IMG/VR virus record: IMGVR_UViG_3300000301_000085 | Strand: one strand, 5' to 3' | Origin: a virus | Taxonomy: Duplodnaviria; Heunggongvirae; Uroviricota; Caudoviricetes | Length of the DNA stretch: 19,785 nt | Shown here: in pieces, positions 6,880 through 19,785 of the stretch | Position numbering within the stretch: the first letter of the stretch is position 1 | How the letters are laid out: every line of letters begins with the position of its first letter | Translations under genes and position numbers: made by a program | The notes under the pieces: model-generated | What the model saw: only the letters and a program-made list of their open reading frames with translations | The model's database searches: none | Told to the model about the DNA's origin: nothing

Positions 6880-6994
6880 TGGGGTGTTTAATTAGGTCTG
6901 GCATGTCTTACGAAGCCTGCTTCCGTATATATTTAATAAGTTACTTATTATTTATATATACAGATGCAGGTCTTTAAATAAGCTCCCAGACCGA

Positions 6995-7261: not shown

Positions 7262-7361
7262 GGCAAATCCTTATGCCGGTAAAGCAATTTCTAACGGTTT
7301 ATCCAAAGGTTGTTTGTCGAATGCCAGCAGTGGCAGCGTGTCAGGCAGTCGACGGCCAAAG

Positions 7362-8316: not shown

Positions 8317-9064
8317 GAATGGACCTCATCATGAATACCATTGTGATATTCCACCTTCACGCGTTCTTTGTAGTGCTTGGTGATCTGCATATCAGGGCGC
8401 AGCGCGTTCTTCAGGTCTTCGTGAGTCGTCGCCACCATTACCGTCGCACCAACCTTTCGAGCGGCACGCTGGAGGTTAGACGCCACAACCTGAGCGGTTA
8501 CACGGTCGAGAACAGCGCCGAACTCGTCAGCAGCCCATACTTTAGCGCCTGACTCAATCAGTTTGGCAATCTTGAGACGATATTTCTGGCCGTCTGACAT
8601 TTCAGAAGGCTTGCGAACAAACAGATATGCATCGTTCAGACCAGCCATAGATANNNNNNNNNNNNNNNNNNNNNNNNNNNNNNNNNNNNNNNNNNNNNNN
8701 NNNNNNNNNNNNNNNNNNNNNNNNNNNNNNNNNNNNNNNNNNNNNNNNNCGCATCACTGGTCGTTTTGCCCAACTGATCGATGACGTTAACCTCATTATC
8801 GAAGGTAAAATCATCGATGGAGGCTACAGACAGCCCTTCATCCTTCATCTGTCGTTGCAACTCGCGCAGCACAACGGATTTGCCGGAACCGGATTGGCCG
8901 GTGATGTACACCACATCGCCCTGCTTCACTTCCAGCTCCAGATTGTCGTAAAGCGTCCACTCTTTTTCGTCCAGGCCAAGCCCGAACGACTCAGCGATTT
9001 CCAACGTGCGCGTGGTTTTATTTACGCGTGTCTGAAACGATACGTTGATGATGTATTTGCTCAT
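8313..9064 (-). CDS. ABC-type ATPase (nucleotide-binding-domain-like, ~250 aa; two ORF segments, frame changes at masked segment 8654-8749)
   Basis: Walker A YITGQSGSGKS; signature-like SDGQKYRLKIAKL; Walker B/D-loop VWAADEFGAVLD; H-loop MVATTHED; ATGA coupling to the ParB-like gene at 9061-9064. Confidence 0.7.
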
Positions 9065-9729
9065 GCAGCCATCTCCCCGGAAGAGATCTTCTCCGCATAT
9101 GCCACAAATGCGTCTACCCCGCTTTCTCCCGTCATTTCTTCCATATGGGCAAGCAAATCACCAACAACAATGGCAGAGCCAGCAGGGAGCGTTTTAAAGC
9201 CCAATACGTCGACAACACGTACTTCTTCCGCTGCAACTTCACGACTGATCTCGGTGTGTTCATCCTTCTGTCGTTTAGTTTCTTCGCCAAGATCGATAAC
9301 TAGCGAGTCGGTGTCCATTTCTTCTGTCATACTGCCAACGAGAACATTCAACTCACGCTCTTCAAAGCCGAAAACCTCGATATCGTCCAGAACAAGCGAC
9401 TCAAGCTCTTTCTGTAGCTTAATTGCATCGTAATCAATGCTGGCAAGTCGGTTATCTTCAAGGCGCTTCGCACGAACCTCGTCATCACTGAGATCATCGC
9501 GAACAATAACCGGTACGCGCTCAAGTCCAGCAAAAATTGCAGCCTCACGGCGGCCGTGGCCAGTAATAATTACGTCGTTCTTATCGACCGTAATTGGCTG
9601 GTCAAATCCGCGCTTTTTAATGGCTGCGGCCAGATCTCTGATCTGCTGTTCATCATGCTTTTTGGCATTCATCTCATAGGGAATAAGATCTGCCGGGTCG
9701 CGATATACGATTTCAAACTTTTTGGTCAT
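9061..9729 (-). CDS. ParB/Srx-like N-terminal-domain protein (paralog 2)
   Basis: ITGHGRREAA (GxxRxxA ParB box); ATG at 9729-9727 overlaps the upstream stop (TAATG). Confidence 0.75.
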   Translation of the reverse strand: MTKKFEIVYRDPADLIPYEMNAKKHDEQQIRDLAAAIKKRGFDQPITVDKNDVIITGHGRREAAIFAGLERVPVIVRDDLSDDEVRAKRLEDNRLASIDYDAIKLQKELESLVLDDIEVFGFEERELNVLVGSMTEEMDTDSLVIDLGEETKRQKDEHTEISREVAAEEVRVVDVLGFKTLPAGSAIVVGDLLAHMEEMTGESGVDAFVAYAEKISSGEMAA

Positions 9730-10409
9730 TACATACGCTCCTTGTAGTAGTCGACCAGCCACACCAGAGCCTCACCAGCGTTCTCCATTTCATTACCGGT
9801 GTTAATAGCCTGCTCTTTGATGATGTTTTTTATGGTTTCTGCAACACGATCTGACGCATCGAAAGTTACTTTGAAGCGCATGGTCTGATGTTCCGCACCC
9901 ACACGTTCGGTTTTCTCTCGTTTGTCGGTATCGACAGGCTCATCACTACCACGAGACAACGCCTCCAGTGCTTCAAGGTCGATTGCCGCCTCTTTTGCTA
10001 AAACCATCGAGATTTCGTCGTCATACGGAGCGATTTCAGACAGTTGATAGTCAAGTTCTGACTGAATTTCTTCAATGAAGCGTTGCAATGCGATTTGGTC
10101 GTCTTCACCGTATCGCTCGTTGTCCACCAGTGACATCTGTTTAGCTACGACATCGCTAATTTTGCCCACAGAAAGCACCGGAACCGTTGAAATTCCTTGC
10201 TCAATAGCAGCACGCCAGCGATGTTCACCGCCGAGGATTTCAAAAAATCCATCTTCAAGTTCACGAGCCAAAATTGGCTTAAAAAAGCCCAATTTTTCGA
10301 TAGAACCTTTCAGTTTTTCAAAATTCTGCGCACCAACCGAATTGGTGTTCCAGGTATTCGGGCGAAGGTTGGCAACATCAACCTGCAAAATCGTGATTTT
10401 TACATCCAT
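9729..10409 (-). CDS. ParB/Srx-like N-terminal-domain protein (paralog 1)
   Basis: ILGGEHRWRAA ParB box; ATG 10409 preferred over GTG 10427; first gene of the leftward operon. Confidence 0.75.
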   Translation of the reverse strand: MDVKITILQVDVANLRPNTWNTNSVGAQNFEKLKGSIEKLGFFKPILARELEDGFFEILGGEHRWRAAIEQGISTVPVLSVGKISDVVAKQMSLVDNERYGEDDQIALQRFIEEIQSELDYQLSEIAPYDDEISMVLAKEAAIDLEALEALSRGSDEPVDTDKREKTERVGAEHQTMRFKVTFDASDRVAETIKNIIKEQAINTGNEMENAGEALVWLVDYYKERM

Positions 10410-10491
10410 TTTATTGCTACAATCCACTAAGTAATCACTTACTTATTATAATAGCCAAATAACATACAAAAGGCACTAAGGAAAGAGGTTT
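10410..10491. promoter_or_regulatory. divergent promoter region with palindromic operator-like site
   Basis: TATAAT at 10447-10452, palindromic with its minus-strand counterpart; inverted repeat TAAGTAA-TCAC-TTACTTA at 10428-10445; AAGGAAAGAGG SD before ATG 10492. Confidence 0.5.
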
Positions 10492-12131
10492 ATGACTGTT
10501 CGGATTGTATCTAACGCAGTAAATGCGCTTATTTCTGGCGCAGATGACAAGGTAAAGCAACTGGTGCAGCAAATGTTGAGCTACGAAGTCGAGACTGGCG
10601 ACTGGAAGGGCACAAGCACGATGTTCAACTGGAGTAAAAACTCGTTCCCTGCTGGCTTTGCCAAGCCTGTAGCGGCGAACTTGAACAAGGCGGGCATCAA
10701 ATGTGTTCATATCCGCAAAGACAAAGCCCCGGCGCTTGGTAAACCAAATCCGGCGGTTAACCCATTCCCATACAATCCTGATTATGCATATCAGGATCAG
10801 ACTGTGGAAACACTGGTTCGAGAGGGAATGATGATTGCGCAGATCGCTACTGGTGGCGGGAAATCTAACGTTGCCTGCAAAGCAGCTGCACGTATCGGTC
10901 GAATGACATTATTTTTAACAACCCGCTCTGTTCTGATGTTTCAAATGGCCGAAAACTTCCAGAGATCCATCGACTACCGCGCCGAAAATGGCGAACCGTG
11001 GTTAAAAGACCAAAAGGTTGGAGTCATTGGCTCGGGTGAGTTCCAGGTATCACGACATATCAACGTCGCTACAGTTCAAACTCTGGCAAGTTTCCTTGAA
11101 GAACCACCACGCGATGCAACACCAGATAAAAAGAGCTACCACCTCAAACGTCGGGAGCTAGTGAAACGCTTCCTTTCAAGTGTGTCTCTGCTTATTCTGG
11201 AAGAAGCGCATGAGTCTTCAGGCTCTAATTTCTATGACATTGCCAGATTATGTGTGAACGCAGACTATCGTCTGGCGCTTACGGCCACGCCGTTCATGAA
11301 GGATTCTACAGAAGCCAACATGCGTCTGATGGCTGTGGCCGGTCGAATTGAAATTAAAGTCACAGAAAAGTACCTGATTGATCGAGGCATTCTGGCAAAA
11401 CCGTACTTCCTTTATCATAAAGTTGCTTACAAGCCAGACGAGGTCAGAATCAAGGCGGAACTTGCCAACAAACACCTTAATTTTAGAGTTGGTATGAGCA
11501 CCGCCTACCAAAAGGCTTATCAGTTGGGGATCGTGTATAATTTGGGACGTAACNNNNNNNNNNNNNNNNNNNNNNNNNNNNNNNNNNNNNNNNNNNNNNN
11601 NNNNNNNNNNNNNNNNNNNNNNNNNNNNNNNNNNAGGCCATAGTGCGCGAGGCATTGCTTTATAAGCAACATTCACTCAACTGCATGACTCTGGTTCGTC
11701 TTAAACGCCACGGGCAAATCCTGATGGAGATGATGAAGGAGTCAGGTCTTAAAGTTGATTTCATCTATGGGGAATCTAACCAGACGACAAGGCAAGCAAA
11801 GCTGAATAGTTTAGCGTCTGGTGAAATAGATGTTTTAATAGGCTCGACTATTCTGGATGTTGGTGTTGATGTGCCAAGCGTTGGTGCGGTCATTCTTGCT
11901 GGTGGTGGGAAAGCAGAAGTTGAAATGAGACAGCGTGTCGGTCGTGGCTTACGAGCCAAAAAAAATCAGGCAAACGTGTGTTTTATCACTGATTTCATTG
12001 ACATTAGCAACAAATACCTGTTGTCTCACTCTTATGAGCGAAAACACATCATCGACACCACACCTGGCTTTGCAGAAGGTGTATTGCCTATTGATGGAGC
12101 ATTCGATTTTGGAGTTCTGAAACGAGATTAG
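10492..12131 (+). CDS. superfamily-2 (DEAD/DEAH-like) helicase; two ORF segments across masked 11554-11634
   Basis: Motif I IATGGGKS; motif II LILEEAHES; motif III LALTATPF; C-terminal motif VI QRVGRGLR; ~110-aa N-terminal extension. Confidence 0.8.
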
Positions 12132-12133
12132 TT

Positions 12134-12412
12134 ATGAGTGAAAAGAAAACAACTTACTGTCAGGTAGCATTGTCTGATAAGGCCAATGACAAACTTGGAA
12201 AGTTTCAAGTGAAACTAAAAGAAAAAAATATCAAAATGTCTAAGGCTGAAGTCATAAATACCATTCTGGAACAATTGACAATGGCCGACTTTGACAAGGT
12301 TATATCTTCTGTCGGGGCTTCCGCTAAGACTCGTGAGAAAATCATGCGTATCTATGAGAACTCTAATATGACAAAGGAAGATCTCGAAACGCTATTAAGC
12401 AGATTAAAATAA
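12134..12412 (+). CDS. small protein, possible ribbon-helix-helix DNA binder
   Basis: 92 aa; starts 3 nt after helicase stop; N-terminal beta-strand then two helices (TTYCQVALSDKANDKLGKFQVKLKEKNIKMSKAEVINTILEQL). Confidence 0.45.
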   Translation: MSEKKTTYCQVALSDKANDKLGKFQVKLKEKNIKMSKAEVINTILEQLTMADFDKVISSVGASAKTREKIMRIYENSNMTKEDLETLLSRLK

Positions 12413-12438
12413 TCACGCTATCAATTAGGGAGACAAAG

Positions 12439-12873
12439 ATGAAGTCTCCCATACTGTTCACTTTCTGTTCTAAAACTAACATGAAATACTCGCTTCTCCC
12501 TCTACTAACGTTACCAGTGTTGATGCTTACCGCGTGCCAATCACGTCCAATATCAATCCATGACGCCAAACCAGCACCGCAGGCCAAAGTGTTCAAGTAT
12601 CAAAGCGCAGCGCCAGCTACGTTGGTGGTAATGAGAGACACAGGTTTTGTAGGAGCTGGATGTGATGCTTCCATTTTCATCAATGGCGAAACTGTCGCAA
12701 AACTGGCTACAGGCGAAAAAGCGACTTTTCATTTAAATGCCGGAGAANNNNNNNNNNNNNNNNNNNNNNNNNNNNNNNNNNNNNNNNNNNNNNNNNNNNN
12801 NNNNNNNNNNNNNNNNNNNNNNNNNNNNNNNNNNNNNNNNNNNCTCTTGAAGGTGCAGGTTTATGTGCTCTAA
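12439..12873 (+). CDS. putative lipoprotein (3' end uncertain, masked 12748-12843)
   Basis: GGGAGA SD; hydrophobic signal with lipobox-like LTAC then Cys (MKYSLLPLLTLPVLMLTAC); alternative start at 12481. Confidence 0.55.
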   Translation: MKSPILFTFCSKTNMKYSLLPLLTLPVLMLTACQSRPISIHDAKPAPQAKVFKYQSAAPATLVVMRDTGFVGAGCDASIFINGETVAKLATGEKATFHLNAGEXXXXXXXXXXXXXXXXXXXXXXXXXXXXXXXXLLKVQVYVL

Positions 12874-12909
12874 ACCCCGCTCGTCAAGAGCGAGAAACGA
12901 CTCTGAAGA

Positions 12910-13440
12910 ATGGAGACACAAAAGCGTTCAGGGTGTTCACCAGCAATTCTGGTGACATCGACATTCTGCCAACAACTCTGTGATGACATGACAACCAAAG
13001 ATATTACCTACGGTATCCAAGCTGAACTCTGGCCGCGAGATTACACTAACGTTGAAAAANNNNNNNNNNNNNNNNNNNNNNNNNNNNNNNNNNNNNNNNN
13101 NNNNNNNNNNNNNNNNNNNNNNNNNNNNNNNNNNNNNNNNNNNNNNNNNNNNNNNNNNNNACAAATTCCTGTAAGGGTCACTCTCGAAGATGGCCAGGCG
13201 TTTTGCATGTACGTTTATGGCCTCATGCCATCTCGTAACAAAGTTGACCTTTGCCCAGCCCCTTTTGACAAAGAAAATCGTATAAGGCTCCCACTTGAAC
13301 GCATTAGTACAATTGAATCAGGTGTGGTTGANNNNNNNNNNNNNNNNNNNNNNNNNNNNNNNNNNNNNNNNNNNNNNNNNNNNNNNNNNNNNNNNNNNNN
13401 NNNNNNNNNNNNNNNNNNNNNNNNNTCAAAGGTCGACTAA
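12910..13440 (+). CDS. hypothetical protein(s); two masked segments, continuity unproven
   Basis: Open frame through masks 13060-13160 and 13332-13425; no recognisable motif; weak SD. Confidence 0.3.
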   Translation: METQKRSGCSPAILVTSTFCQQLCDDMTTKDITYGIQAELWPRDYTNVEKXXXXXXXXXXXXXXXXXXXXXXXXXXXXXXXXXXQIPVRVTLEDGQAFCMYVYGLMPSRNKVDLCPAPFDKENRIRLPLERISTIESGVVXXXXXXXXXXXXXXXXXXXXXXXXXXXXXXXXSKVD

Positions 13441-13539
13441 CAGTTCACCCTGATTATGTCGATAATCGGCCATCACGCCGCGATTTTTTTGCAATTTGCA
13501 ACCAAGCCTACAAAGCAAACAAATCTATAAGGGTGTACA

Positions 13540-13668
13540 TGGCGGATGGCCGTGAAATTGAGGGGGTGTCAGCAGGCGCAGATGCTTGTCAGGTTACACT
13601 ACGTGTCGAGAACGGTAGAAAAATAGTTGTTTTGTTCGATTGGGTTGAACGAATTTTGCCTTTTTGAG
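13540..13668 (+). CDS. small hypothetical protein (42 aa)
   Basis: AAGGGTG SD; ATG 13540; stop 3 nt before the next start; below the ORF-track size cutoff. Confidence 0.3.
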
Positions 13669-13670
13669 TT

Positions 13671-13979
13671 ATGAAATCGATATTGTTACCACCATTATTT
13701 TTACTTTGCTCAGTTGCGGCAAATGCAATGGACTATAAGCCTGTCATTCAGTCGCTGATGAATGACGTGTGCTCAACGTCTCAGAATGTATCAGTTTGCA
13801 TGTATCAATTTTCGGCAGCCGTAAAAGCAGGAAAAGCGATAGGTGAGAGTGTGGAACTGTGTAAGAAAGTGGCAAATGAAGAACGGGCAATGTTGGATTG
13901 CGAATCTAGCGAGTCATCGGCACAGTTCGTTGATGCGCTATTTGACACCAATCGTAAGGCTGTAGAGTCTGTTCAATAA
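13671..13979 (+). CDS. small secreted (periplasmic) protein, four Cys in mature part
   Basis: Signal peptide MKSILLPPLFLLCSVAANA with AxA cleavage motif; followed by a terminator. Confidence 0.55.
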   Translation: MKSILLPPLFLLCSVAANAMDYKPVIQSLMNDVCSTSQNVSVCMYQFSAAVKAGKAIGESVELCKKVANEERAMLDCESSESSAQFVDALFDTNRKAVESVQ

Positions 13980-13991
13980 ATCTATAAGGTT

Positions 13992-14022
13992 AATAACCGG
14001 CTAAGTCCGGTTATTATTTTTC
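13992..14022 (+). terminator. intrinsic terminator
   Basis: AATAACCGG-CTAAGT-CCGGTTATT followed by ATTTTT. Confidence 0.65.
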
Positions 14023-14147
14023 ACATCACTTCTTTATATCTATAAATCAAATAACCTAAATATATATAAGGTCTAAAGCCGGAATCGATTATTTATTTAG
14101 GGAACACCTTCGACGATCTCGCTTTTATTTCTAGGACTTTCATCCCT

Positions 14148-14204
14148 GCAAAAAATTTAAAAAAAACACTTGCAATCTTTTTTCGCATATCGATAATTGA
14201 ACTC
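14148..14204 (+). promoter_or_regulatory. strong sigma70-type promoter with upstream A-tract
   Basis: -35 TTGCAA (14170-14175), 16-nt spacer, -10 GATAAT (14192-14197); A-tract AAAAAATTTAAAAAAAA upstream (UP-element-like). Confidence 0.6.
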
Positions 14205-14262
14205 GTCGAAAGCGAAGACACTAACGACAATAAATTTTAAATTTACATAAGGAAAAATTATC

Positions 14263-14913
14263 ATGGCTAACATTATCATTTCTAAAAAATCCATCGTTGA
14301 AGCTGCTTCCATTGTATCCGATGAACTGCGCGAAAAAGCAGATCTGGCAACTCAAACATATAACGAACATTATAAAAATGGTACGCACACTAAAGCAGAC
14401 AAAGCAAATATGCAAGCTGCGACCACTAAACTTGCTTACTTCATCAACAACGTTGTAAACGCTGTAGAAGACGAAAAATTATGCTCTGTTTTCTACTATG
14501 CGATTAAAGCAAGCAAACAAGCGCCAGAAGTATTTTTCCGTGATGCAATGACTAATAGTTATTCTCTGGAAAAACTGGTTTATCTGGTTAAATCCATTAA
14601 AGCTGGCAAATGTGTTTATTCCGTCGCTGATATGTCAGGATCTCGTGTATTCGCTTTAATCGATATGATTAACGACGAGATCGACACGTTCACCAATGGC
14701 GCTGTTTTCGATTTAATGAATGAAGCTAAAAAAGCGTGTGAAATTAAATTGGACGCTGGCTATACTCAAGCCAACCAGTTGATCAATCTTTGCGAACGTC
14801 TTGGACTTGTTGAAAAAGTCAAAGGAGCTGGGAGCGCGAAAGCTGGTACTCAGCAATATCGCTTCATTAAAAATGATTTCTACAATTATTTAGCTGATGC
14901 TTTCAAAGCGTAA
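14263..14913 (+). CDS. hypothetical protein (216 aa), predicted to be highly expressed
   Basis: TAAGGAA SD 8 nt before ATG; AT-rich but uses host-preferred codons (GCT, GAA, AAA, ATC, TTC, CGT/CGC); no recognisable catalytic motif. Confidence 0.7.
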   Translation: MANIIISKKSIVEAASIVSDELREKADLATQTYNEHYKNGTHTKADKANMQAATTKLAYFINNVVNAVEDEKLCSVFYYAIKASKQAPEVFFRDAMTNSYSLEKLVYLVKSIKAGKCVYSVADMSGSRVFALIDMINDEIDTFTNGAVFDLMNEAKKACEIKLDAGYTQANQLINLCERLGLVEKVKGAGSAKAGTQQYRFIKNDFYNYLADAFKA

Positions 14914-14925
14914 TTAATGGAATCA

Positions 14926-14944
14926 AGCGCCCACTATGGGCGCT
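14926..14944 (+). promoter_or_regulatory. intergenic hairpin (attenuator-like), no U-tract
   Basis: AGCGCCCA-CTA-TGGGCGCT directly after stop 14913 and before SD AAGGAG; a second copy (right arm TGGGCGCTTTTTT) emerges from the mask at 15520-15535. Confidence 0.4.
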
Positions 14945-14961
14945 TTAAAGGAGCTTTAAAG

Positions 14962-15165
14962 ATGGTCAGCTATGACAAGATCCGCGCGGAATATCGCGCA
15001 AAGTATCGCGCTTATAAACTGGAATTAATCGATGATTTGATCGCGCAACGCGACCAATTAAATTTTACGTTTTCTGATTTGCTTAACAGCAAGCGAGATT
15101 GCAAGCGCAAACGTGAATACTTACGTTTAAGCGCATTAATCGGAAAACTTCAAAATTCTATTTGA
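14962..15165 (+). CDS. small basic protein (67 aa)
   Basis: AAGGAG SD 9 nt before ATG 14962 (ORF-track start 14917 lacks an SD); K/R-rich, helical. Confidence 0.5.
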   Translation: MVSYDKIRAEYRAKYRAYKLELIDDLIAQRDQLNFTFSDLLNSKRDCKRKREYLRLSALIGKLQNSI

Positions 15166-15186
15166 TTTTTTTTAAGGAGCTTAATC

Positions 15187-15567
15187 ATGTTTGTTCTTAT
15201 CGCTGGCGTTAACGTCCATAATGAATATTATGTTAATCGCATCGCTGGGATAGCTGGTTACGCTGGGCGCTCAGTCGAGTTTATCGATGAAACAACGCGT
15301 AAAATTGATTTATTGAGCGACCAGGAGCGAAAAAAAGCAGACGTGAACGACGCTGATATATTTTTAATGTTAAAAGCGTTTGTAGAAATGGGATTTAAAA
15401 TCAGTTTACACAAATNNNNNNNNNNNNNNNNNNNNNNNNNNNNNNNNNNNNNNNNNNNNNNNNNNNNNNNNNNNNNNNNNNNNNNNNNNNNNNNNNNNNN
15501 NNNNNNNNNNNNNNNNNNNATGGGCGCTTTTTTCGTTTCCAATACTCCCACCATAACGCGCCAATGA
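15187..15567 (+). CDS. hypothetical protein (3' end uncertain, masked 15416-15519)
   Basis: TAAGGAG SD before ATG 15187; N-terminal 76 aa readable; the post-mask tail may be out of frame. Confidence 0.45.
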   Translation: MFVLIAGVNVHNEYYVNRIAGIAGYAGRSVEFIDETTRKIDLLSDQERKKADVNDADIFLMLKAFVEMGFKISLHKXXXXXXXXXXXXXXXXXXXXXXXXXXXXXXXXXXXMGAFFVSNTPTITRQ

Positions 15568-15584
15568 TGGCGCGTTTTTTATTG
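15555..15584 (+). terminator. intrinsic terminator
   Basis: AACGCGCCA-ATGA-TGGCGCGTT followed by TTTTTTATTG. Confidence 0.6.
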
Positions 15585-15829
15585 TCTTTAACTCACTCCA
15601 ACAACATAAAAATAAGCGCCCAAATAACGCCATAGACGCGCTTTTATATCCTTACCAGTACATACCCATTACTTAACACATTAACGCGCTTAAAACGCGT
15701 TATATTGCGCTATAACGTATGGCTAATCATTGGCTTTTATTCTTGCTATGTGATCCGTGTTTATTTGTCGGCGCGGATCGGCATTTTGTGTTGTTCTGTA
15801 TCCGCTCGCGTATTATGTGCGCGTGATTT

Positions 15830-15872
15830 TTCACATAATCACACCACTTAATCACGTATGTGATTACGCTAC
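15830..15872. promoter_or_regulatory. cluster of TAATCAC/GTGATTA half-sites (operator-like palindromes)
   Basis: GTGATTTTTCACATAATCACACCACTTAATCACGTATGTGATTACGC; TAATCAC-N4-GTGATTA inverted repeat. Confidence 0.35.
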
Positions 15873-15994
15873 GAAAGAAATCTGGATGTCTCAGGTGACG
15901 AAAGTCATCATAATTTTCCCCGCTCACCTGTCCGACAACCGCTGGTTGGATTCCACCAGCTTCCCGATGTTTTTTCTACATAAAGGCGAATGCA

Positions 15995-16108
15995 GCCGTT
16001 TCCCGAAAAAATCCTGGCCGTTTCCCGTCGGCTCATGAATACGTTCCTCGCCGTTTCTGAAAATTTCCCTGCGGCAGCTGGTGGCTATAGAGAAAGGGCC
16101 GTTTCTGG
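15995..16108. repeat. four direct copies of CCGTTTC(C/T) (iteron-like)
   Basis: Copies at 15995, 16018, 16051 and 16099, in noncoding DNA between convergent transcription units. Confidence 0.35.
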
Positions 16109-16111
16109 CCC
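16096..16111 (-). terminator. terminator-like hairpin after gene 16121..16603
   Basis: GGGCC-GTTTCT-GGCCC; the minus transcript continues UUUCUCUAUAG. Confidence 0.4.
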
Positions 16112-16120
16112 TATTCTCAG

Positions 16121-16603
16121 TTACACGCCATCAAGGATGTGGATGCGGTTGCTTGCGTATACATTCAGCATAAAGTTAGCGCAAAACAGTTTCCATGTGT
16201 CAACGCCAGCGGTATACGTAATGTTTTTGCATTTAATCGCATTGTTGGCGATCCGCATCCCCTGCGATACTGCTTCATCGTCGGAAAATTTGAACGACGA
16301 TTGAGTTTTAATCCAGACAGAAATCTGCGTAGCGAACTCAATCAGCTTGGACTGGCAGAATCGCCCGGAGCGCACCGGAAAGACGAACGTTCCGAACCCA
16401 GAATTTACCACATACGCTTTCTCAAATACCCGCGAGTAACGACGATTGCCAATGATGTCGCGTGCAATAATGCATTTTTCTTGTGCTGACAGTTCTACCG
16501 TCTCATTGTCGCGCCATGCACCAAGTACTCGTTTTTCAATGTCAGAGAACGTTACAGCGATATTGCCATGTGCGGGTGCGTTTACAGTAGCGATAAAATT
16601 CAT
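16121..16603 (-). CDS. hypothetical protein (160 aa)
   Basis: AAGGAA SD before ATG 16603; own promoter/operator element upstream. Confidence 0.6.
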   Translation of the reverse strand: MNFIATVNAPAHGNIAVTFSDIEKRVLGAWRDNETVELSAQEKCIIARDIIGNRRYSRVFEKAYVVNSGFGTFVFPVRSGRFCQSKLIEFATQISVWIKTQSSFKFSDDEAVSQGMRIANNAIKCKNITYTAGVDTWKLFCANFMLNVYASNRIHILDGV

Positions 16604-16675
16604 GATTAATTCCTTATCGTAAATAACAAATTGTTTTCTTGTTGGTGTTAATTATCGTTGTACGAATAAGGCGTC
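16604..16675 (-). promoter_or_regulatory. cassette promoter plus AACAAaTTGTT palindrome (element E1)
   Basis: Minus strand TTGACG...GATAAT then AAAACAATTTGTTAT then SD; about 35 nt near-identical to E2 and E5. Confidence 0.5.
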
Positions 16676-16780
16676 AAAGTGGAAAGTTGCGGTAGCCGGA
16701 CGGGAACAGGTGGGTTTGTCGGTTGCCTGGAGGTAAGAGGTTGGTGTTTTTAGCCTGCGGGAAACAGGATGGTCATTTAA

Positions 16781-16800
16781 GGCCACCAGCATTGGTGGCC
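16781..16800 (-). terminator. conserved GC-rich hairpin 8 nt after the stop (terminator-like, weak U-tract)
   Basis: GGCCACCA-GCAT-TGGTGGCC. Confidence 0.4.
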
Positions 16801-16807
16801 TTAATCT

Positions 16808-17089
16808 TTAGTGGAGCAGACCGATGTCGATGGTATCCCCTGAATCATCCACACGGATCATCAGCATGGCAAAGGCGTTTAGTGGATAGCTTGCGTGCCA
16901 TTCAGGGAAGCGGTCATCTCGCATGAAGTCGGCAATGTCGTAAACGCATCCCTCAAAGTGGAAGAATCGCGTGCTTACCTGCTCGTCATAATCCACATGA
17001 TCCATTTCTTGCTGTTCTGTTTCCGGCAAGTCCAGCCATGATTCAAGAAATACATTTTGTGCTTTAGGGGTAATGGTGAAATCAGTCAT
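16808..17089 (-). CDS. small strongly acidic protein (94 aa)
   Basis: GAGGA SD 7 nt before ATG 17089; about 20 D/E against 5 K/R (DLPETEQQEMDHVDYDEQ, RVDDSGDTIDIG). Confidence 0.55.
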   Translation of the reverse strand: MTDFTITPKAQNVFLESWLDLPETEQQEMDHVDYDEQVSTRFFHFEGCVYDIADFMRDDRFPEWHASYPLNAFAMLMIRVDDSGDTIDIGLLH

Positions 17090-17098
17090 GAGCATATC

Positions 17099-17165
17099 CT
17101 CACTGCGTAAACATGTTGTTTTCTTGTTGGTGTAATTATCGCAGTGTAGATAAAGCATAAAAGAA
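17099..17165 (-). promoter_or_regulatory. cassette promoter plus AACAtgTTGTT palindrome (element E2)
   Basis: Minus strand GATAAT then AAAACAACATGTTT then SD; flanked by inverted repeat CACTGCG/CGCAGTG. Confidence 0.5.
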
Positions 17166-17251
17166 GTTAATACAGGCTGAATACACAAGAAAGGTTCTGG
17201 AAGTTGATAGCAAGGTTTCAAACTAACCTTCGGTTATTAAAAGTCATTTAA

Positions 17252-17272
17252 GACCACCAATGCTGGTGGCCT
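17252..17272 (-). terminator. conserved GC-rich hairpin (inverted-orientation copy of the one at 16781)
   Basis: GACCACCA-ATGC-TGGTGGCC, 11 nt after stop 17283. Confidence 0.4.
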
Positions 17273-17282
17273 TAATAATTAT

Positions 17283-17426
17283 CGCCCGATTACGCTAAGG
17301 ATCTTTTCCTCAACTGATTTGTTGTTGCGACTAAACTGCCTTGCGTATCTGATGACAGAAGAGGCGTTTCGCTTTCTGACCATCTCGGCTCTCTCCTTCA
17401 GGCGTTTCTTGAAATCGCCCATATTT
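17283..17426 (-). CDS. tiny basic protein (47 aa)
   Basis: ATG 17426 lies 2 nt after the upstream stop (TAAATATG); MGDFKKRLKERAEMVRKRNASSVIRYARQFSRNNKSVEEKILSVIGR; below the ORF-track cutoff. Confidence 0.3.
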
Positions 17427-17799
17427 ACCACCAGGCGCAGAAGGTCAGTCTATTATTGTGAAAGTCGTGGTTCTTAATCAGATCTTCCACAAGCTCTTTC
17501 AACTCCCCCACATCATGCCAGTAACCTTCATCGTACTCCTGACTGCCGAAGAAAAAACCTTCCCGGGTAGGCAAGTACTCTTCGCAATTACTTTCGTTTA
17601 TGTGCATCAAATGAGCCTTCAGAAAACAAATGTCATTCATCGTTAATTCTAAAAGCTCACAATTTTCGACTTCACCTACGTTGCGCTCCATCCACCCAAC
17701 GAGCGCATTGAACTTACGGAAGTAAGCAACCTGCTTTCTGGATGCCTCGTTATTCAGATCGTTTTTAGGCTGTGTCTCGATATAGATATCAAGTCCCAT
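17425..17799 (-). CDS. small acidic protein (124 aa)
   Basis: AAGGAAACC SD before ATG 17799; E/D-rich. Confidence 0.55.
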   Translation of the reverse strand: MGLDIYIETQPKNDLNNEASRKQVAYFRKFNALVGWMERNVGEVENCELLELTMNDICFLKAHLMHINESNCEEYLPTREGFFFGSQEYDEGYWHDVGELKELVEDLIKNHDFHNNRLTFCAWW

Positions 17800-17849
17800 G
17801 ATGGTTTCCTTATTAAGTTGCTTCAGTGAAATCATTTTCACAAATCAGA

Positions 17850-17876
17850 TAAGGCAGAAAACAAATTGTTATCGGG
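17850..17876 (-). promoter_or_regulatory. AACAAaTTGTT palindrome upstream of gene 17425..17799
   Basis: Plus-strand AGAAAACAAATTGTTATCGG. Confidence 0.4.
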
Positions 17877-17884
17877 CATAAGAA

Positions 17885-17907
17885 AATGGCGCGGTTTACG
17901 CGCCATT
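17885..17907 (-). terminator. intrinsic terminator after gene 17917..18312
   Basis: AATGGCGCG-GTTTA-CGCGCCATT; the minus transcript continues UUUCUUAUG. Confidence 0.55.
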
Positions 17908-17916
17908 CAAAGAGGA

Positions 17917-18312
17917 TTAAGCGAATACGCTTTCAGGGATTAAGGTGTCAGCAGGAATGCCAGAGGTAATGCGCAGGCCGTACTGACCAATCCAGGTAGT
18001 GTTGGTATTCAGGCTGGAGGCGAATACGGTGTTAACCATATTCATCATGGTTTCAAACACCTCTTCATCAACCTGGCGGAAGTAGTTCTCGATTTTCAGC
18101 AGCAGCGGGTCAGTTGCATCGAAAATAGACTGGTATTGAGTCGCGTACTCGCCGCCGGAGGCATCACCTTTACGCACGATCGTACTGGCCTGGACTTCGG
18201 CACCAGTTTCGGTGTTGTACGTAACAACGGTGATTTTTGCCACATTCTTACCTTCGGCGGTTTCAGAGGCATAGTAAACATCAACTGTCAGTTTTTCGCG
18301 TTTAACGGTCAT
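17917..18312 (-). CDS. hypothetical protein (131 aa)
   Basis: GGAGAG SD before ATG 18312 (MTVKREKLTVDVYY...); own promoter; no palindrome element. Confidence 0.6.
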   Translation of the reverse strand: MTVKREKLTVDVYYASETAEGKNVAKITVVTYNTETGAEVQASTIVRKGDASGGEYATQYQSIFDATDPLLLKIENYFRQVDEEVFETMMNMVNTVFASSLNTNTTWIGQYGLRITSGIPADTLIPESVFA

Positions 18313-18345
18313 TTCACTCTCCGTAGTGTTTTGGTTATTTTTATA

Positions 18346-18374
18346 TTCTATGATCGTAAGTATGTACTTACAAT
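18346..18374 (-). promoter_or_regulatory. sigma70-type promoter for gene 17917..18312
   Basis: Minus strand -35 TTGTAA, 16-17-nt spacer, -10 TAGAAT. Confidence 0.5.
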
Positions 18375-18403
18375 ACAAAAAAGCCCCGTAAGGATGGCGG
18401 GGC
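18374..18403 (-). terminator. canonical intrinsic terminator after gene 18439..18750
   Basis: Minus strand GCCCCGCC-ATCCTTA-CGGGGC followed by TTTTTTG. Confidence 0.7.
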
Positions 18404-18438
18404 TGTCGTACGGTCGACTAATTACCACTTGCACATTA

Positions 18439-18750
18439 TCAGGCTATTGCCATCACTGATGCTCTCTGAATCTCTTGCTGGGCCACGCGGTTAACTTCCA
18501 TCAAAGCCAGTTCGAGCTGATGTTCCGGCCACATTCTTTGAAATGCCACCCAGCCTTTTCCACGCTGGCGACGAACATTCATTACATAACGAGTAAAGGT
18601 GTTTTTATCGAAAGACACCGCTGTTTCACGGAACAGACGAATAGAGGTTCCATTGGCAACGATGTCCAGCAAAGTTAATTGAGCAACCAGCGCAGGCTTC
18701 TCTTTTCTCTTCTGGTCTTTGTCCAGACCAAGAACCAATGATTTTTTCAT
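18439..18750 (-). CDS. small basic protein (104 aa), possible nucleic-acid binder
   Basis: GGAG SD before ATG 18750 (MKKSLVLGLDKDQKRKEK...); K/R-rich. Confidence 0.55.
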   Translation of the reverse strand: MKKSLVLGLDKDQKRKEKPALVAQLTLLDIVANGTSIRLFRETAVSFDKNTFTRYVMNVRRQRGKGWVAFQRMWPEHQLELALMEVNRVAQQEIQRASVMAIA

Positions 18751-18830
18751 CACAACTCCGTAAACAACTTGTTTTCTCAATGGCGTAAATAATACCAGTA
18801 AGAAAACGGCTACAAAGCATATTGATCAGG
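18751..18830 (-). promoter_or_regulatory. cassette promoter plus perfect AAACAAcTTGTTT palindrome (element E3)
   Basis: Minus strand TTTGTAGCCGTTTTCTTACTGG-TATTAT then AAAACAAGTTGTTT then SD; about 85% identical to E4 over ~60 nt. Confidence 0.5.
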
Positions 18831-18877
18831 TGCATGAGCGATATGCAGGTTCTTCCCTGCGGCTACAGATTAAGTTA

Positions 18878-18894
18878 AGCCAGCAATGCTGGCT
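18878..18894 (-). terminator. conserved hairpin after gene 18905..19234
   Basis: AGCCAGCA-A-TGCTGGCT, followed on the plus strand by TTGATTGTGATTACGC. Confidence 0.4.
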
Positions 18895-18904
18895 TTGATT
18901 GTGA

Positions 18905-19234
18905 TTACGCGAATACCTCAAGAAACTCCTGAACGTCCCAATGCTGGACGAGGTGAAGATAGACCTTAGAAATCACGTCATTTTCGCTATCGCATGTGAA
19001 GTAGTACTTCTGGCTGCGGTTGTATGTGTCCACACAAAATTCGCTCATATCCATAAAGTCAGCATCTTCACCCATGTCGCAAATCATCAAAGCAGGTGCG
19101 TCATCACGAGTCATCAGCTCAAGCACCCACCGCGAATTGATCAGAGTGGAAGACCAACCTTCTAACTCATAAAACTGATCAAACTCTTTTTGAGTTAATT
19201 TCTTGATTTGGTTGATGTCGATATTTGCAAACAT
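18905..19234 (-). CDS. small acidic protein (109 aa)
   Basis: AAGGA SD 7 nt before ATG 19234 (MFANIDINQIKK...); D/E-rich (MICDMGEDADFMDMSEF). Confidence 0.55.
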   Translation of the reverse strand: MFANIDINQIKKLTQKEFDQFYELEGWSSTLINSRWVLELMTRDDAPALMICDMGEDADFMDMSEFCVDTYNRSQKYYFTCDSENDVISKVYLHLVQHWDVQEFLEVFA

Positions 19235-19310
19235 AAAGCAATCCTTAAACAACTTGTTTTCTGAATTGCGTAAACAATACCAGTAAGAAAACGGCCACAA
19301 AGTATATCGT
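19235..19310 (-). promoter_or_regulatory. cassette promoter plus AAACAAcTTGTTT palindrome (element E4)
   Basis: Minus strand TTTGTGGCCGTTTTCTTACTGG-TATTGT then AAAACAAGTTGTTT overlapping the SD. Confidence 0.5.
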
Positions 19311-19349
19311 TACGGTGCTGCGCTGCCCCGGAGGTTAATAGCGACAAAA

Positions 19350-19366
19350 GCCACCGTGCTGGTGGC
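19350..19366 (-). terminator. conserved GC-rich hairpin after gene 19374..19670
   Basis: GCCACC-GTGCT-GGTGGC, 8 nt after the stop. Confidence 0.4.
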
Positions 19367-19373
19367 CTCACTC

Positions 19374-19670
19374 TTAATCTTCGTCGTCCGGGAACTCGCT
19401 GTGTACCGCGCCCACCAGCTCCCGCTTTTCATCTTCACTCAGCAGGTGCCAGATATNNNNNNNNNNNNNNNNNNNNNNNNNNNNNNNNNNNNNNNNNNNN
19501 NNNNNNNNNNNNNNNNNNNNNNNNNNNNNNNNNNNNNNNNNNNNNNNNNNNNNNNNTTCTGCCGGGACGAACGACCACAACTTGCGGTACAACTCCGGCC
19601 CCACTGCATCCAGACACTCAGCCAGGGAATCCACGCCCCACACCTCAACCGTCACAGGCATCTTAATCAT
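19374..19670 (-). CDS. small acidic protein (about 98 aa, middle masked 19457-19556)
   Basis: GAGGA SD before ATG 19670; acidic C-terminus EFPDDED. Confidence 0.5.
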   Translation of the reverse strand: MIKMPVTVEVWGVDSLAECLDAVGPELYRKLWSFVPAEXXXXXXXXXXXXXXXXXXXXXXXXXXXXXXXXXXIWHLLSEDEKRELVGAVHSEFPDDED

Positions 19671-19750
19671 CTCTTCATCCTCACTTCGTTTCTATAACGT
19701 CTAAATATGTTGTTTACTTGTTGGTGTTATTATCGAAATAAGACAAAGGC
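19671..19750 (-). promoter_or_regulatory. cassette promoter plus AAtAtgTTGTT palindrome variant (element E5)
   Basis: Plus-strand AAATATGTTGTTTACTTGTTGGTGTTATTATCG, near-identical to E1 and E2. Confidence 0.45.
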
Positions 19751-19785
19751 GAAAAAGGATTTTATGTCGGGAAAGCCAGGCTTGG

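Follow-up and report, generated by a model that had tools for sequence, protein, structure and literature searches.

Chi-containing hairpins among the accessory-gene cassettes of an SSU5-like phage-plasmid

Short structured repeats next to genes have been described in several mobile and chromosomal settings. Morons of lambdoid phages, a concept of Juhala and Hendrix, are units composed of a promoter, a gene and a terminator. DNA uptake sequences (USS in Haemophilus, DUS in Neisseria) are arranged in inverted pairs, which make up transcription terminators. The closest analogue of the locus considered here is the promoter-early stem-loop (PeSL) cassette of T4-type phages (Arbiol et al. 2010, PMC2839356; Comeau et al. 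2014, PMC4122927). Some phages are rich in Chi (GCTGGTGG), the E. coli recombination hotspot, among them P1 with 50 sites and the lambdoid phage LLS with 23 (Zheng et al. 2025, PMC12315714; Bobay et al. 2013, PMC3784561). The words hairpin, terminator and intergenic are absent from these last two papers.

The window, by which we mean the whole 19,785-nucleotide stretch of viral DNA that was analysed, comes from an SSU5-like phage-plasmid. By sequence comparison, positions 16000-19440 are 100% identical to the E. coli plasmid pTHO-010-2, phage Cyrano/pLF82 has 99% identity to the window, and 724 PLSDB plasmids match it. The phage encodes a T4-like recombination set (UvsW, UvsY, a gp32-like SSB, a RecA/UvsX-like protein and an SbcCD-like nuclease). 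The array under study consists of small minus-strand genes that all point in one direction. Each cassette has its own sigma70-like promoter, and the layout runs from a sigma70-type promoter through a AGAAAACAANTTGTT element, an RBS and a small ORF to a hairpin. Gene g1 (16121..16603, minus strand; 160 aa; PHROG 1641, function not known) is a conserved anchor at the array end and was used to gather 77 related loci; these are phylogenetically non-independent, and counts across them therefore exceed the true number of independent events. The hairpin block occurs at 515 places in 238 E. coli genomes, all on SSU5-like plasmids and none (0 of 515) on chromosomes.

The reading that we favour, with a probability of roughly 60%, is that the hairpins are stem-loops acting as weak terminators or 3' stabilisers, whose sequence also provides Chi sites and short homologies for recombination. 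As part of this reading, the units of the array would be independently transcribed, moron-like accessory-gene cassettes, with the hairpins as their 3'-end stem-loops.

Structure and placement of the hairpins

The first-pass annotation reported four hairpins, and their coordinates are confirmed; all are stable and non-random. Hairpin A (16777..16804, minus strand) reads TTAAGGCCACCA-AUGC-UGGUGGCCUUAA on the coding strand, lies 3 nt past the g2 stop codon (16808-16810) and folds as coding-strand RNA into a perfect 12-bp stem with a loop of 4 (-20.1 kcal/mol, z -4.9). Hairpin B (17248..17275, minus strand), 3 nt past the g3 stop (17279-17281), has the same arms and flanks with the loop inverted (coding-strand z -3.8). 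Hairpin C (18877..18895, minus strand; AAGCCAGC-AUU-GCUGGCUU) lies 9 nt past the g7 stop, with an 8-bp stem and a loop of 3 (-13.2 kcal/mol on the coding strand). Hairpin D (19350..19366, minus strand), 7 nt past the g8 stop, has the coding-strand sequence GCCACC-AGCAC-GGUGGC then UUUUGU; its stem is 6-7 bp and its loop 5 (coding-strand fold -18.3 kcal/mol with flanking pairs counted). The pattern CCASCANNNNTGSTGG, with at most one mismatch, has 5 matches against 0.11 expected, and its two exact matches are hairpins A and B. The next promoter lies some 100 nt downstream of each hairpin. Selection on the structure is seen among the related loci: paired cells make up 87.9% versus 83.5 +/- 0.8 in shuffles (0/500 as high), 5/12 stem pairs show double changes, and the outer stem covaries.

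Several details of the initial description need revision. The gap from stop codon to hairpin, put at 8-12 nt, measures 7, 7, 9 and 7 nt to the core, and 3 nt for A and B when the extended stems are counted. The 20-mers of A and B, described as exact reverse complements, agree at 19/20 positions: the one difference, an A in B for a G in A, gives a G.U pair on minus-strand RNA only, and the plus strand has an A.C mismatch there (hairpin B folds at -17.4 kcal/mol on the minus strand versus -13.1 on the plus strand). The two are not elements in opposite orientation. They sit in a 39-nt direct repeat (16772..16810 and 17243..17281, 82% identical) whose flanks run the same way, and the inversion is confined to the 4-nt loop, GCAT in one and ATGC in the other. 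Nor do the four form one family: A, B and D share Chi arms, whereas C (GCCAGC/GCTGGC) belongs to a separate terminator-like subfamily without Chi, seen in 34 related loci.

The coding strand was also said to lack a clean U-tract. This stands for A and B, which are followed by UUAAAUGA, and for C, followed by UUAACUUA, but not for D, whose tail (GGUGGC-UUUUGU) is the most terminator-like of the four. Efficient intrinsic termination at A and B is doubtful because U occupies just 3 of the 8 positions that follow the GC-rich stem. Neighbouring minus-strand genes end in hairpins without Chi. A terminator-like one follows g1 (16095..16112; AGGGCC-AGAAAC-GGCCCU then UUCUCUAU), one of a classical intrinsic terminator family follows g5 (17885..17907; AAUGGCGCG-UAAAC-CGCGCCAUU then UUCUUAU), and a classical intrinsic terminator follows g6 (18382..18404; AGCCCCG...CGGGGCU then UUUUUU).

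Chi in the stems and its conservation in relatives

What escaped the first-pass annotation is that the conserved arm, together with 2-3 loop bases, spells Chi, so that the stem pairs the octamer with its complement and what looked like two orientations is an inverted loop, which puts Chi on the other strand. In A, B and D the last 2-3 Chi bases are unpaired in the loop. Chi lies at 16783-16790 on the minus strand in A, at 17262-17269 on the plus strand in B and at 19358-19365 on the plus strand in D; hairpin C has no Chi (GCTGGCTT). Further copies occur downstream of g1 (15953..15960, minus strand; non-coding, conserved family-wide, in a weak 5-bp stem, GCTGGTGGAATCCAACCAGC), beyond the g1 terminator hairpin (16077..16084, plus strand; non-coding, 10 nt past that hairpin) and in g8 (19412..19419, minus strand), the sole coding Chi of the array. 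Array Chi sites are thus non-coding in 5 of 6 cases.

The window contains 9 Chi where 0.31 are expected (0/200 shuffles reached 9), and Chi is its top-ranked octamer. In Cyrano it ranks third, with 25 copies against 2.3-9.2 expected; the excess is compositional in part, since a fifth-order Markov model already predicts 9.2. All six non-coding Chi in 40 kb of pTHO-010-2 fall within the 3.8-kb array, and over the 77 loci Chi density peaks around the array at 0.8-1.8 per kb versus 0.1-0.3 elsewhere.

It is possible, though we consider it unlikely, that the hairpins are plain intrinsic terminators or attenuators, and that an ancestral GCTGGTGG-containing terminator was copied along with the cassettes, its Chi functionless and kept by descent and stem constraint. 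The position after stop codons, the covariation, the G.U bias and the U-tract on D all fit such an origin, and pairing alone constrains 6/8 Chi bases. Moreover, some lineages keep the hairpin and lose Chi: at site A it is gone in about a dozen loci, via CCATCAGC or GCCGGTGG variants. Chi is also absent from 68/87 distinct hairpins with stems of at least 7 bp, including most other array terminators, and no single site requires it. Counter to this, a complete Chi is present in 41/48 distinct CCACC-loop-GGTGG hairpins from the 77 loci, where about 3% would be expected. The Chi-completing bases are unpaired, yet they are kept in loops of 3-9 and on both strands as other loop bases vary. Hairpins with Chi on the coding strand have loop columns 16-18 (GCT) fixed and 13-15 variable, and those with Chi on the other strand show the mirror pattern, with AGC fixed and the remaining loop bases variable. 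The further non-hairpin, non-coding Chi cluster in the same 3.5 kb and the rank of Chi as the window's top octamer likewise argue against terminators alone.

The converse proposal is that only the DNA matters: the palindrome would carry Chi and permit strand flipping, or act as a recombination or replication-slippage hotspot, with transcript structure irrelevant. Conserved Chi, hairpin-internal junctions and the weak U-tracts of A and B agree with it, as do the inverted loops. Exact inversions within identical flanks, each moving Chi to the other strand, are seen for ATGC/GCAT, CTGC/GCAG (L010 versus L031) and AGCA/TGCT (L045 versus L076). We nevertheless find this proposal improbable. In stems with one non-Watson-Crick pair, that pair is a coding-strand G.U 14 times and an A.C twice. 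Placement is constant, 3-12 nt past the stops of at least 8 unrelated genes. In one relative (L013) a compensatory path from CCACCA/TGGTGG through CCATCA/TGGTGG (U.G) to CCATCA/TGATGG preserved the hairpin after Chi had been destroyed. Finally, Chi works without its complement; in the first 50 kb of P1, 1/27 Chi lies in a hairpin, and that one is intragenic.

Very unlikely, in our view, is a role in RNA processing or stability in place of termination (as sites for RNase III or RNase E, or as 3' exonuclease barriers), or one as Rho- or factor-assisted termination sites. Stable stems with poor U-tracts on A-C would suit such roles, and the read-through polycistronic transcript that the RNase-site and exonuclease-barrier variants presume is plausible for genes that are all co-directional. 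Each cassette has its own promoter, however, D and the adjoining non-Chi hairpins are canonical terminators, the sequence does not distinguish such elements from leaky termination, and Chi is left unexplained.

Cassette junctions and mosaic breakpoints

The proposal that the hairpins are recombination boundaries delimiting exchangeable cassettes gains support from relatives. The g2 cassette (16806..17243, minus strand; 438 bp between hairpins A and B) comprises a promoter block and an ORF at 16808-17089 (PHROG 1845, function not known). Exactly this segment is missing in PhiR41_1, CMS-2020a and at least 16 IMG/VR loci, where the junction falls within the hairpin repeat. Solo hairpin sites consist of A's left flank and B's right flank, and the 39-nt repeat pair is, from this sequence pattern, the apparent homology for gain or loss of the cassette. 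When gene-content breakpoints in relatives were compared with the hairpins, gain and loss junctions fell inside them. At orthologues of site A, a single downstream sequence follows the ends of at least 8 different upstream genes, the joints lying in the hairpin, and Buttiauxella retains a g2 homologue with its hairpin next to a different downstream neighbour. Breakpoint clusters are intergenic in 13 of 14 cases.

A second class of mosaic breakpoint, overlooked initially, is formed by the promoter and 5'UTR blocks, where junctions are as common as at the hairpins. The g1 block (16625..16679, minus strand) has a -35 TTGACG and a -10 GATAAT/ATAATT followed by AGAAAACAATTTGTT, and it has paralogues at 17108-17171, 18757-18833, 19242-19318 and 19702-19765. 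The promoter blocks are without Chi. Junctions in the hairpins would be expected from short homology alone, with Chi activity not needed, and exchange need not involve RecBCD, because the phage has a T4-like recombination set itself. Phages that are Rec+ are usually Chi-poor (PMC12315714).

Cassette-like layout, hairpins at the borders and palindromic arms might recall site-specific recombinase targets, folded in the manner of integron attC, or protein-bound operators of palindromic sequence, but this is highly improbable for hairpins of 17-28 nt without attC R/L boxes or extrahelical bases, with no adjacent integrase (the sole annotated one in Cyrano is >50 kb away), with variable junction positions that include promoter blocks and, in the case of a fixed dsDNA operator, with loop lengths of 3-9 and a covarying outer stem.

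Possible roles and likeness to known systems

If the hairpins are indeed weak terminators or stabilisers that double as Chi sites and homologies, three roles may be combined in them. In mRNA, the stem-loop may end or attenuate transcription or shield the 3' end, which is plausible given the post-stop position, the coding-strand G.U bias and the covariation. Hairpin D would come close to a canonical intrinsic terminator; the other three, with poor U-tracts, are probably leaky. In DNA, every Chi hairpin would be a Chi site at which host RecBCD may act. Together with the adjacent non-coding Chi, the hairpins form a dense two-orientation Chi island, which would halt RecBCD degradation and have RecA loaded in the array region, and Chi may have a causal part in cassette exchange. 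Third, the near-identical 16-28 bp hairpin cores could serve as short homologies for cassette deletion, insertion and swapping between related plasmids, as could the promoter blocks. Because the stem is palindromic, loop inversion shifts the full Chi to the opposite strand and leaves the hairpin unharmed. Such inversions may arise by replication template switching, for which there is precedent (PMC8794818), or by recombination between the arms.

Imperfect palindromes after genes are shared with integron attC sites, which bound mobile cassettes, and with REP/BIME elements, of which REP stabilise upstream mRNA. In contrast to attC, the array has neither attC architecture nor an adjacent integrase, and its cassettes bring their own promoters; REP elements are chromosomal, unlike the hairpin block in the 238 E. 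coli genomes. Like morons, the cassettes are autonomous accessory-gene units with their own promoter and terminator, inserted between other genes. Morons are usually single insertions, whereas here a tandem array shares recombinogenic, Chi-containing boundaries. As with USS and DUS, a short strand-specific signal for a DNA-processing machine lies in non-coding DNA, paired with its complement so that it doubles as a 3' stem-loop. The machine there serves uptake and here would be RecBCD; each hairpin here has one full copy, with 5-6 of 8 bases in the other arm; and the carrier is a plasmid-phage rather than a chromosome.

With P1 and LLS the element shares an enteric RecBCD host and clustered Chi sites, GCTGGTGG being strongly over-represented and among the commonest octamers. 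In LLS, Chi has one orientation near the genome end; here the accessory array that carries it is internal, both orientations occur, and the sites are mostly non-coding and hairpin-embedded; the SSU5-like element also has its own recombination proteins.

The PeSL cassettes differ in that they belong to T4-type myoviruses and not to a temperate siphovirus-like phage-plasmid, have polyG/polyC stems instead of host Chi, and form one compact motif of about 100 bp, whereas here some 100 nt separate hairpin and promoter. A strand-specific signal is switched here by the loop inversions. PeSL features include mini-circles and terminator activity; the present array is known from its sequence. Both systems nonetheless combine an intergenic terminator stem-loop with a strong sigma70-like promoter around small ORFan genes in hyperplastic regions, and the element here encodes T4-like recombination proteins. 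In PeSL, an ORF that is flanked in one phage has as its counterpart in the other a single chimeric motif, which matches exactly the case of g2 and the solo hairpin.

Chi octamers within a family of intergenic hairpins

The main new point to emerge is that hairpins of the small-gene array are Chi sites. The window is part of an SSU5-like phage-plasmid: positions 16000-19440 are 100% identical to the E. coli plasmid pTHO-010-2 (NZ_AP022542.1) and 99% identical to Escherichia phage Cyrano/pLF82 (E. coli LF82 plasmid NC_011917.1). The region is present in 241 of 5,426 complete E. coli genomes (~4%), plasmid-borne every time, and matches to the array occur in 724 PLSDB plasmids, whose hosts are Klebsiella, Escherichia, Enterobacter, Yersinia, Salmonella and Citrobacter. 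From ~16100 to the window end all genes are minus-strand and small (47-160 aa), making up the array g1-g8; outside it, the window encodes terminase, portal, capsid and ParB proteins and a UvsW-like helicase. A Pfam search with seven array proteins returned no match and their PHROGs matches were all of unknown function, so gene identity gives no functional clue.

The four hairpins reported by the first-pass annotation are all present. Folded as minus-strand RNA, which is the coding strand of the array, hairpin A (16777-16804) has a perfect 12-bp stem (-20.1 kcal/mol), B (17248-17275) a 12-bp stem (-17.4 kcal/mol), C (18877-18895) an 8-bp stem (-13.2 kcal/mol) and D (19350-19366) a stem of 6-7 bp (-18.3 kcal/mol with flanking pairs), with z-scores of -2.8 to -4.9. 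The shared-arm family is non-random, with five matches at one mismatch or fewer against 0.11 expected, the exact matches being A and B. These two had been read as a single element in both orientations and as exact reverse complements. Neither description stands: they form a 39-nt direct repeat with same-oriented flanks (GTCATTTAAG...CTTAAT) in which only the 4-nt loop is inverted, and their 20-mers are reverse complements at 19 of 20 positions. At the one deviating position the minus-strand RNA forms a G.U pair (-17.4 kcal/mol for the fold), where the plus strand has an A.C mismatch (-13.1 kcal/mol).

The arm TGGTGG together with the neighbouring loop bases GC spells 5'-GCTGGTGG-3', the Chi hotspot of enteric RecBCD (PMC12315714, PMC5041463). 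Exact octamers lie in hairpins A (16783-16790, minus strand), B (17262-17269, plus) and D (19358-19365, plus), and C is without one (GCTGGCTT). The hosts, E. coli, Klebsiella, Salmonella, Yersinia, Enterobacter and Citrobacter, use this octamer as Chi. The 3' flank of the Chi in A (CCTTAAAT) has A at nucleotides 5-7, which is favourable by the criteria of Taylor et al. 2016 (PMC5041463), and that of the Chi in D (CCTCACTC) is less favourable.

Over-representation and conservation of Chi go beyond what composition would give. There are nine sites in the window against 0.31 expected, a count reached in none of 200 shuffles, and Chi ties as its commonest octamer. Across the whole Cyrano genome it ranks third with 25 copies, against expectations of 2.3 (order-0/1 models) and 9.2 (order-5 model), and is outnumbered only by two octamers that both belong to a promoter-proximal motif. 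Six of the nine window sites fall in the ~3.9-kb array, five of them non-coding, and across 40 kb of pTHO-010-2 all six non-coding Chi sites lie in the array. With the g1 homologue as anchor, 77 related IMG/VR loci show a Chi density of 0.8-1.8 per kb between -3 and +1 kb of g1 and of 0.1-0.3 per kb elsewhere. This family-wide island (15600-19456 in the window) has Chi in both orientations. A single orientation as in phage LLS, relative to the packaging end near terS (~6800-6900), is absent, with four plus and four minus sites in 7000-19785.

Several further observations concern the element and its surroundings. In Cyrano the strand bias of Chi varies by region, with seven of eight sites plus in 2.7-37 kb and six of six minus in 47-68.1 kb, around repA. 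Cyrano encodes a T4-like set of UvsW, UvsY, gp32-like SSB, RecA/UvsX-like protein, SbcCD-like nuclease and RuvC, and it is Chi-rich despite this recombination/replication set of its own, which is unusual given the reported rule that Rec+ phages are Chi-poor. Just 3' of g1, a conserved pair of Chi sites lies 124 nt apart (15953 minus, 16077 plus). The ~550-bp non-coding stretch 15570-16120, between convergent transcription units, contains both of these Chi sites and several hairpins (15751-15823, 15849-15866), and is subject to an indel among relatives with breakpoints at 15816-15820 and 15972. The offset between the window and pTHO-010-2 is 679 across the array and, judged by Chi positions farther upstream, 1003 and 1324 there; the final bases of the window differ as well. 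The window therefore derives from a relative with indels elsewhere and not from pTHO-010-2 itself. Just past the window end, directly upstream of the array, that plasmid has ~1.5 kb (20269-21818) without an annotated gene, which starts with another non-coding Chi (20453, plus strand). Eleven masked runs of N (81-118 nt each, 1,070 N in total) lie at 1884-2001, 3637-3719, 7392-7483, 7950-8054, 8654-8749, 11554-11634, 12748-12843, 13060-13160, 13332-13425, 15416-15519 and 19457-19556; one interrupts g8 and none touches hairpins A-D.

Hairpin structure and Chi are both conserved among relatives. When every CCACC-(3-12 nt)-GGTGG hairpin in the 77 loci was collected without regard to Chi, a complete octamer was found in 41 of 48 distinct sequences and 113 of 121 occurrences; the required AGC or GCT would stand beside the arms by chance at a rate of ~3%. 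Variants that retain Chi differ in loop length (3-9 nt), outer stem and strand. Where the A site has Chi on the coding strand, a variable loop is followed by invariant GC(T) (AATGCT, CATGCT, GATGCT, ACTGCT, CTTGCT, AGTTAACGCT), and where Chi is on the other strand the pattern is mirrored, with AGC invariant and the rest variable (AGCATT, AGCAGT, AGCGTT, AGCATC), as predicted if Chi, and not just the hairpin, is under constraint. Chi is lost in about a dozen loci (CCATCAGC and GCCGGTGG variants). In a control, the first 50 kb of P1, one of 27 Chi sites lies in a hairpin, and that one within ssb; phage P1 thus seldom has Chi in hairpins, and the arrangement is specific to the SSU5-like family. 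On generality, an IMG/VR scan for GCCACCAGC-N(1-5)-GGTGGC is uninformative, the matches listed being mostly chance occurrences in GC-rich coding DNA, with, among them, one recurrent, apparently coding site on contigs of ~47-50% GC.

Other hairpins in the relatives resemble these in part. An array hairpin AACCTGG-CCA-CCAGGTT, found ~5 kb upstream of g1 in L012 (5209-5225) and 11 other loci, includes CCACCAGG, one mismatch away from the Chi complement, and several Chi-less TTAAGGCCAC-loop-GTGGCCTTAA hairpins directly precede a AACAATTTGTT motif. This suggests that both Chi-less types are related terminator lineages in which Chi was lost or never gained. On an apparently different viral contig (IMGVR_UViG_2558860214_000003; 48.9 kb, 56% GC), the perfect palindrome GGCCACCAGCTGGTGGCC at 7875-7890 has full Chi octamers on both strands, overlapping via AGCT.

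Transcription units and conservation of the stem

The Chi-bearing hairpins sit at the 3' ends of autonomous cassettes. Upstream of g1, g2, g6, g7 and g8 lies a conserved block of ~60-75 nt that comprises a sigma70-like -35 (TTGACG, TTGTAG or similar) and -10 (GATAAT or TATTAT), the motif AGAAAACAANTTGTT, an AAGGA/GAGGA ribosome-binding site and the ATG, so each gene is a promoter-ORF-hairpin unit. The window has 13 copies of the motif (0.43 expected), at 6837-6880, 16621-16639, 17110-17124, 17856-17874, 18759-18777 and 19248-19262 and also at 12144 and 13617. It includes the palindrome AACAA-N-TTGTT and is placed between the -10 and the ribosome-binding site of cassette genes, and it also lies ahead of the small terminase gene. 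No octamer in Cyrano is commoner than its AGAAAACA (29 copies) and GAAAACAA (28 copies). A genome-wide role as operator or 5'UTR element in the SSU5-like phage-plasmid family is probable.

Hairpins A, B, C and D follow the stop codons of g2, g3, g7 and g8, respectively, by 3-9 nt, with the next -35 ~100 nt further on, and in relatives the same post-stop placement is seen after at least eight different genes. This position, just past a stop and ahead of the next promoter, is that of an intrinsic terminator. The spacing of 8-12 nt first proposed needs correction, the measured distances being 7-9 nt to the cores and 3 nt to the extended stems of A and B. All four also have the form of a terminator stem-loop on the transcribed strand (a GC-rich stem of ~5-14 bp with a loop of 3-8 nt), the stems of A and B being GC-rich in 8 of 12 bp and the loops of A-D measuring 3-5 nt. 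The first-pass annotation saw no clean U-tract on the coding strand, which holds for A, B and C and fails for D, where UUUUGU comes next. Within the 8 nt 3' of the stem, U accounts for five in D (UUUUGUCG), four in C (UUAACUUA) and three after the GC-rich stems of A and B (UUAAAUGA); relatives of D have CUUUUG or CUUUUU at this position. Other array genes have canonical terminators without the shared arms (17885-17907, 18382-18404, 16095-16112).

The stem itself is conserved. When 31 distinct 30-mers are aligned without gaps, pairing over the 12-pair helix reaches 87.9%, compared to 83.5 +/- 0.8 in shuffles (0 of 500 reached the observed value), and two-sided changes at five pairs amount to 17 cells where 7.5 +/- 2.1 are expected (again 0 of 500); controls in which the helix was slid gave 24-53% pairing. 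The outer stems covary as TTAAGG/CCTTAA, GAGAG/CTCTC, AAGAG/CTCTT and AGGG/CCCT. One lineage preserves a two-step path from CCACCA/TGGTGG through CCATCA/TGGTGG (U.G on the coding strand, ~9 loci) to CCATCA/TGATGG (three loci), at the end of which the hairpin is kept and Chi destroyed. Among distinct sequences whose stem has exactly one non-Watson-Crick pair, this is a coding-strand G.U in 14 and A.C in 2, although several of the 14 are trivial, at the base of D-type stems, and without these the comparison is ~8 versus 2. Together, pairing, covariation and G.U bias in these alignments speak for a role at the RNA level, on the coding strand, and the hairpins are plausibly terminator or stabiliser stem-loops.

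Searches for known RNA families add little. A scan of 15500-19785 with Rfam 15 gave no relevant match; the only hit near a hairpin, to the SAM-SAH family at 16779-16818, is at chance level (18.4 bits with E 0.9, the gathering score being 40). A minus-strand match to the Hrs1 sRNA at 15518-15583, sub-threshold at 32 bits where the gathering score is 56.4, overlaps a plus-strand terminator at 15555-15576, and probably the terminator hairpin alone was matched.

Cassette junctions and loop inversion

Hairpins coincide with gene-content junctions. The suggestion that they delimit exchangeable cassettes is borne out to the extent that junctions in relatives fall within them. The cassette 16806-17243, which is g2 with its promoter, is missing from PhiR41_1, CMS-2020a and at least 16 IMG/VR loci. 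The alignments of these g2-less relatives overlap by the hairpin repeat, and the lone hairpin that remains has the left flank of A and the right flank of B. At the A site, sequence 3' of the hairpin is constant (CTTAAATGACCATCC..., the g1 promoter region), and 5' of it are the ends of at least eight different genes, with stops 3-12 nt ahead of the stem (...CTCCACTAA, ...GCGATAA, ...CATTGA, ...CAGTTGA, ...GCAATGA, ...AGCATGA, ...AAGTAA and ...GCATTAA). In Buttiauxella the g2 homologue retains its Chi hairpin and the downstream sequence switches at the 3' arm itself; in Yersinia and Kluyvera the upstream neighbour of the g2 homologue is another terminator. Breakpoints taken from the ends of high-identity alignments among relatives cluster at hairpins (16761-16805 and 17243) and at promoter/5'UTR blocks (17089-17168, 17845-17847, 18360 and 19232-19266), with a sole cluster inside a gene (18009). 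Both conserved cassette ends therefore serve as exchange points. Of the readings first offered, that of recombination boundaries is supported, and the interpretation as a whole partly so.

The loops of these hairpins also flip. Close relatives with identical flanks have exactly reverse-complementary loops in three settings: the A and B sites of the window (ATGC versus GCAT), the g3-to-g1 context of L010 versus L031 (9800-9827; CTGC versus GCAG) and a D-like site in L045 versus L076 (~8183-8218; AGCA versus TGCT). An origin by point mutation would take three or four substitutions in each, and every one of these inversions shifts a complete Chi to the opposite strand. The difference between the C loop in the window (AAT) and in Cyrano (ATT) was not counted, as a single substitution could suffice. 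Micro-inversion at perfect palindromes seems to be a recurring process. Hairpin loop inversion via template switching during replication is documented for RNA hairpins (PMC8794818); alternatively, the loops may be inverted by recombination between the inverted arms. From the inversions, rates of template switching or of inversion between the arms could be estimated for plasmid populations, and the flipping of Chi between strands is a natural experiment on whether its orientation is selected. Along the array, neighbouring Chi pairs counted over distinct patterns number 62 for -+, 45 for +-, 31 for -- and 18 for ++, so that adjacent sites alternate more often than not, in counts that are phylogenetically non-independent.

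Three roles may be combined in the hairpins. The stem-loops would terminate or attenuate transcription or stabilise the 3' end, a prediction that is strong for D and weak for A-C. The Chi sites would modulate RecBCD of the host and thereby make an island that is protected and recombinogenic in both directions. Finally, the near-identical hairpin cores could supply short homology for cassette exchange, through host RecBCD-RecA or through the element's own UvsW, UvsY, gp32-like SSB, RecA/UvsX-like protein and SbcCD-like nuclease. Counter to exchange driven by Chi, promoter blocks without Chi are junctions as often as hairpins are, and Rec+ phages are usually Chi-poor (PMC12315714).

Taken jointly, the Chi-hairpin may be a dual-use, strand-switchable module, with blocks of the array bracketed by outward-facing Chi; we put the probability of this reading at about one in four. 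Loop inversion would flip the strand-specific Chi and leave RNA function unharmed. Read in locus orientation, the Chi sites run -,+ on either side of g2, of the D-to-A block and of the interval after g1. RecBCD would trim a broken or linear fragment only to the cassette boundary and RecA would be loaded there, much as in a natural version of the Chi-flanked linear DNA used for gene replacement. If so, cassettes would be exchanged preferentially among co-resident SSU5-like plasmids and phages, and the array would be shielded from degradation. SSU5-like phage-plasmids are common, and for host adaptation it is the variable part of their gene content that counts. Boundaries made of terminator stem-loops and Chi would offer a testable mechanism for shuffling accessory genes while keeping them intact, and would join transcription termination, RecBCD-Chi control and phage mosaicism, which are usually separate subjects.

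Parallels in known systems

The closest functional analogue of the Chi-hairpin cassettes is the PeSL of T4-type phages, in which a stem-loop terminator and an early promoter flank ORFans, junctions fall in the motif and even in the loop, and a gene flanked by the motif in one phage is represented in the other by one chimeric motif (PMC2839356). The array likewise has intergenic stem-loops and sigma70-like promoters flanking small ORFan genes, and the indel and replacement junctions between its relatives fall in these motifs. The array element works like PeSL and is not a member of that family: it belongs to an SSU5-like phage-plasmid rather than a T4-type phage, its stem is based on Chi rather than on polyG/polyC, and the spacing between hairpin and promoter differs.

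REP/BIME elements are imperfect palindromes of 35-40 nt with hundreds of chromosomal copies, whereas the hairpin block was found in 515 places, all plasmid, and on no E. coli chromosome, a distribution that excludes REP-like elements as well as generic E. coli terminators. Attachment-site and operator readings are rejected on anatomy: unlike integron attC (an imperfect palindrome of 57-141 nt with R''/L''-L'/R' boxes and extrahelical bases, accompanied by intI and Pc), the array hairpins are perfect and 17-28 nt long, each cassette has its own promoter, and the array neither contains nor adjoins an annotated integrase gene.

P1 and LLS are known examples of Chi-rich phages (PMC12315714), and the words hairpin, terminator and intergenic are absent from two papers on them (PMC12315714, PMC3784561). 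A literature search, of incomplete coverage that leaves novelty unproven, returned nothing joining SSU5 with Chi, or GCTGGTGG with terminator, hairpin and phage together. The nearest conceptual parallel is the uptake sequence (USS/DUS), which as an inverted pair forms a terminator. If the proposed role of the Chi-hairpins is correct, they would be a second case, after uptake sequences, of a DNA-processing signal inside terminator hairpins, and the PeSL idea would reach beyond T4-type phages.
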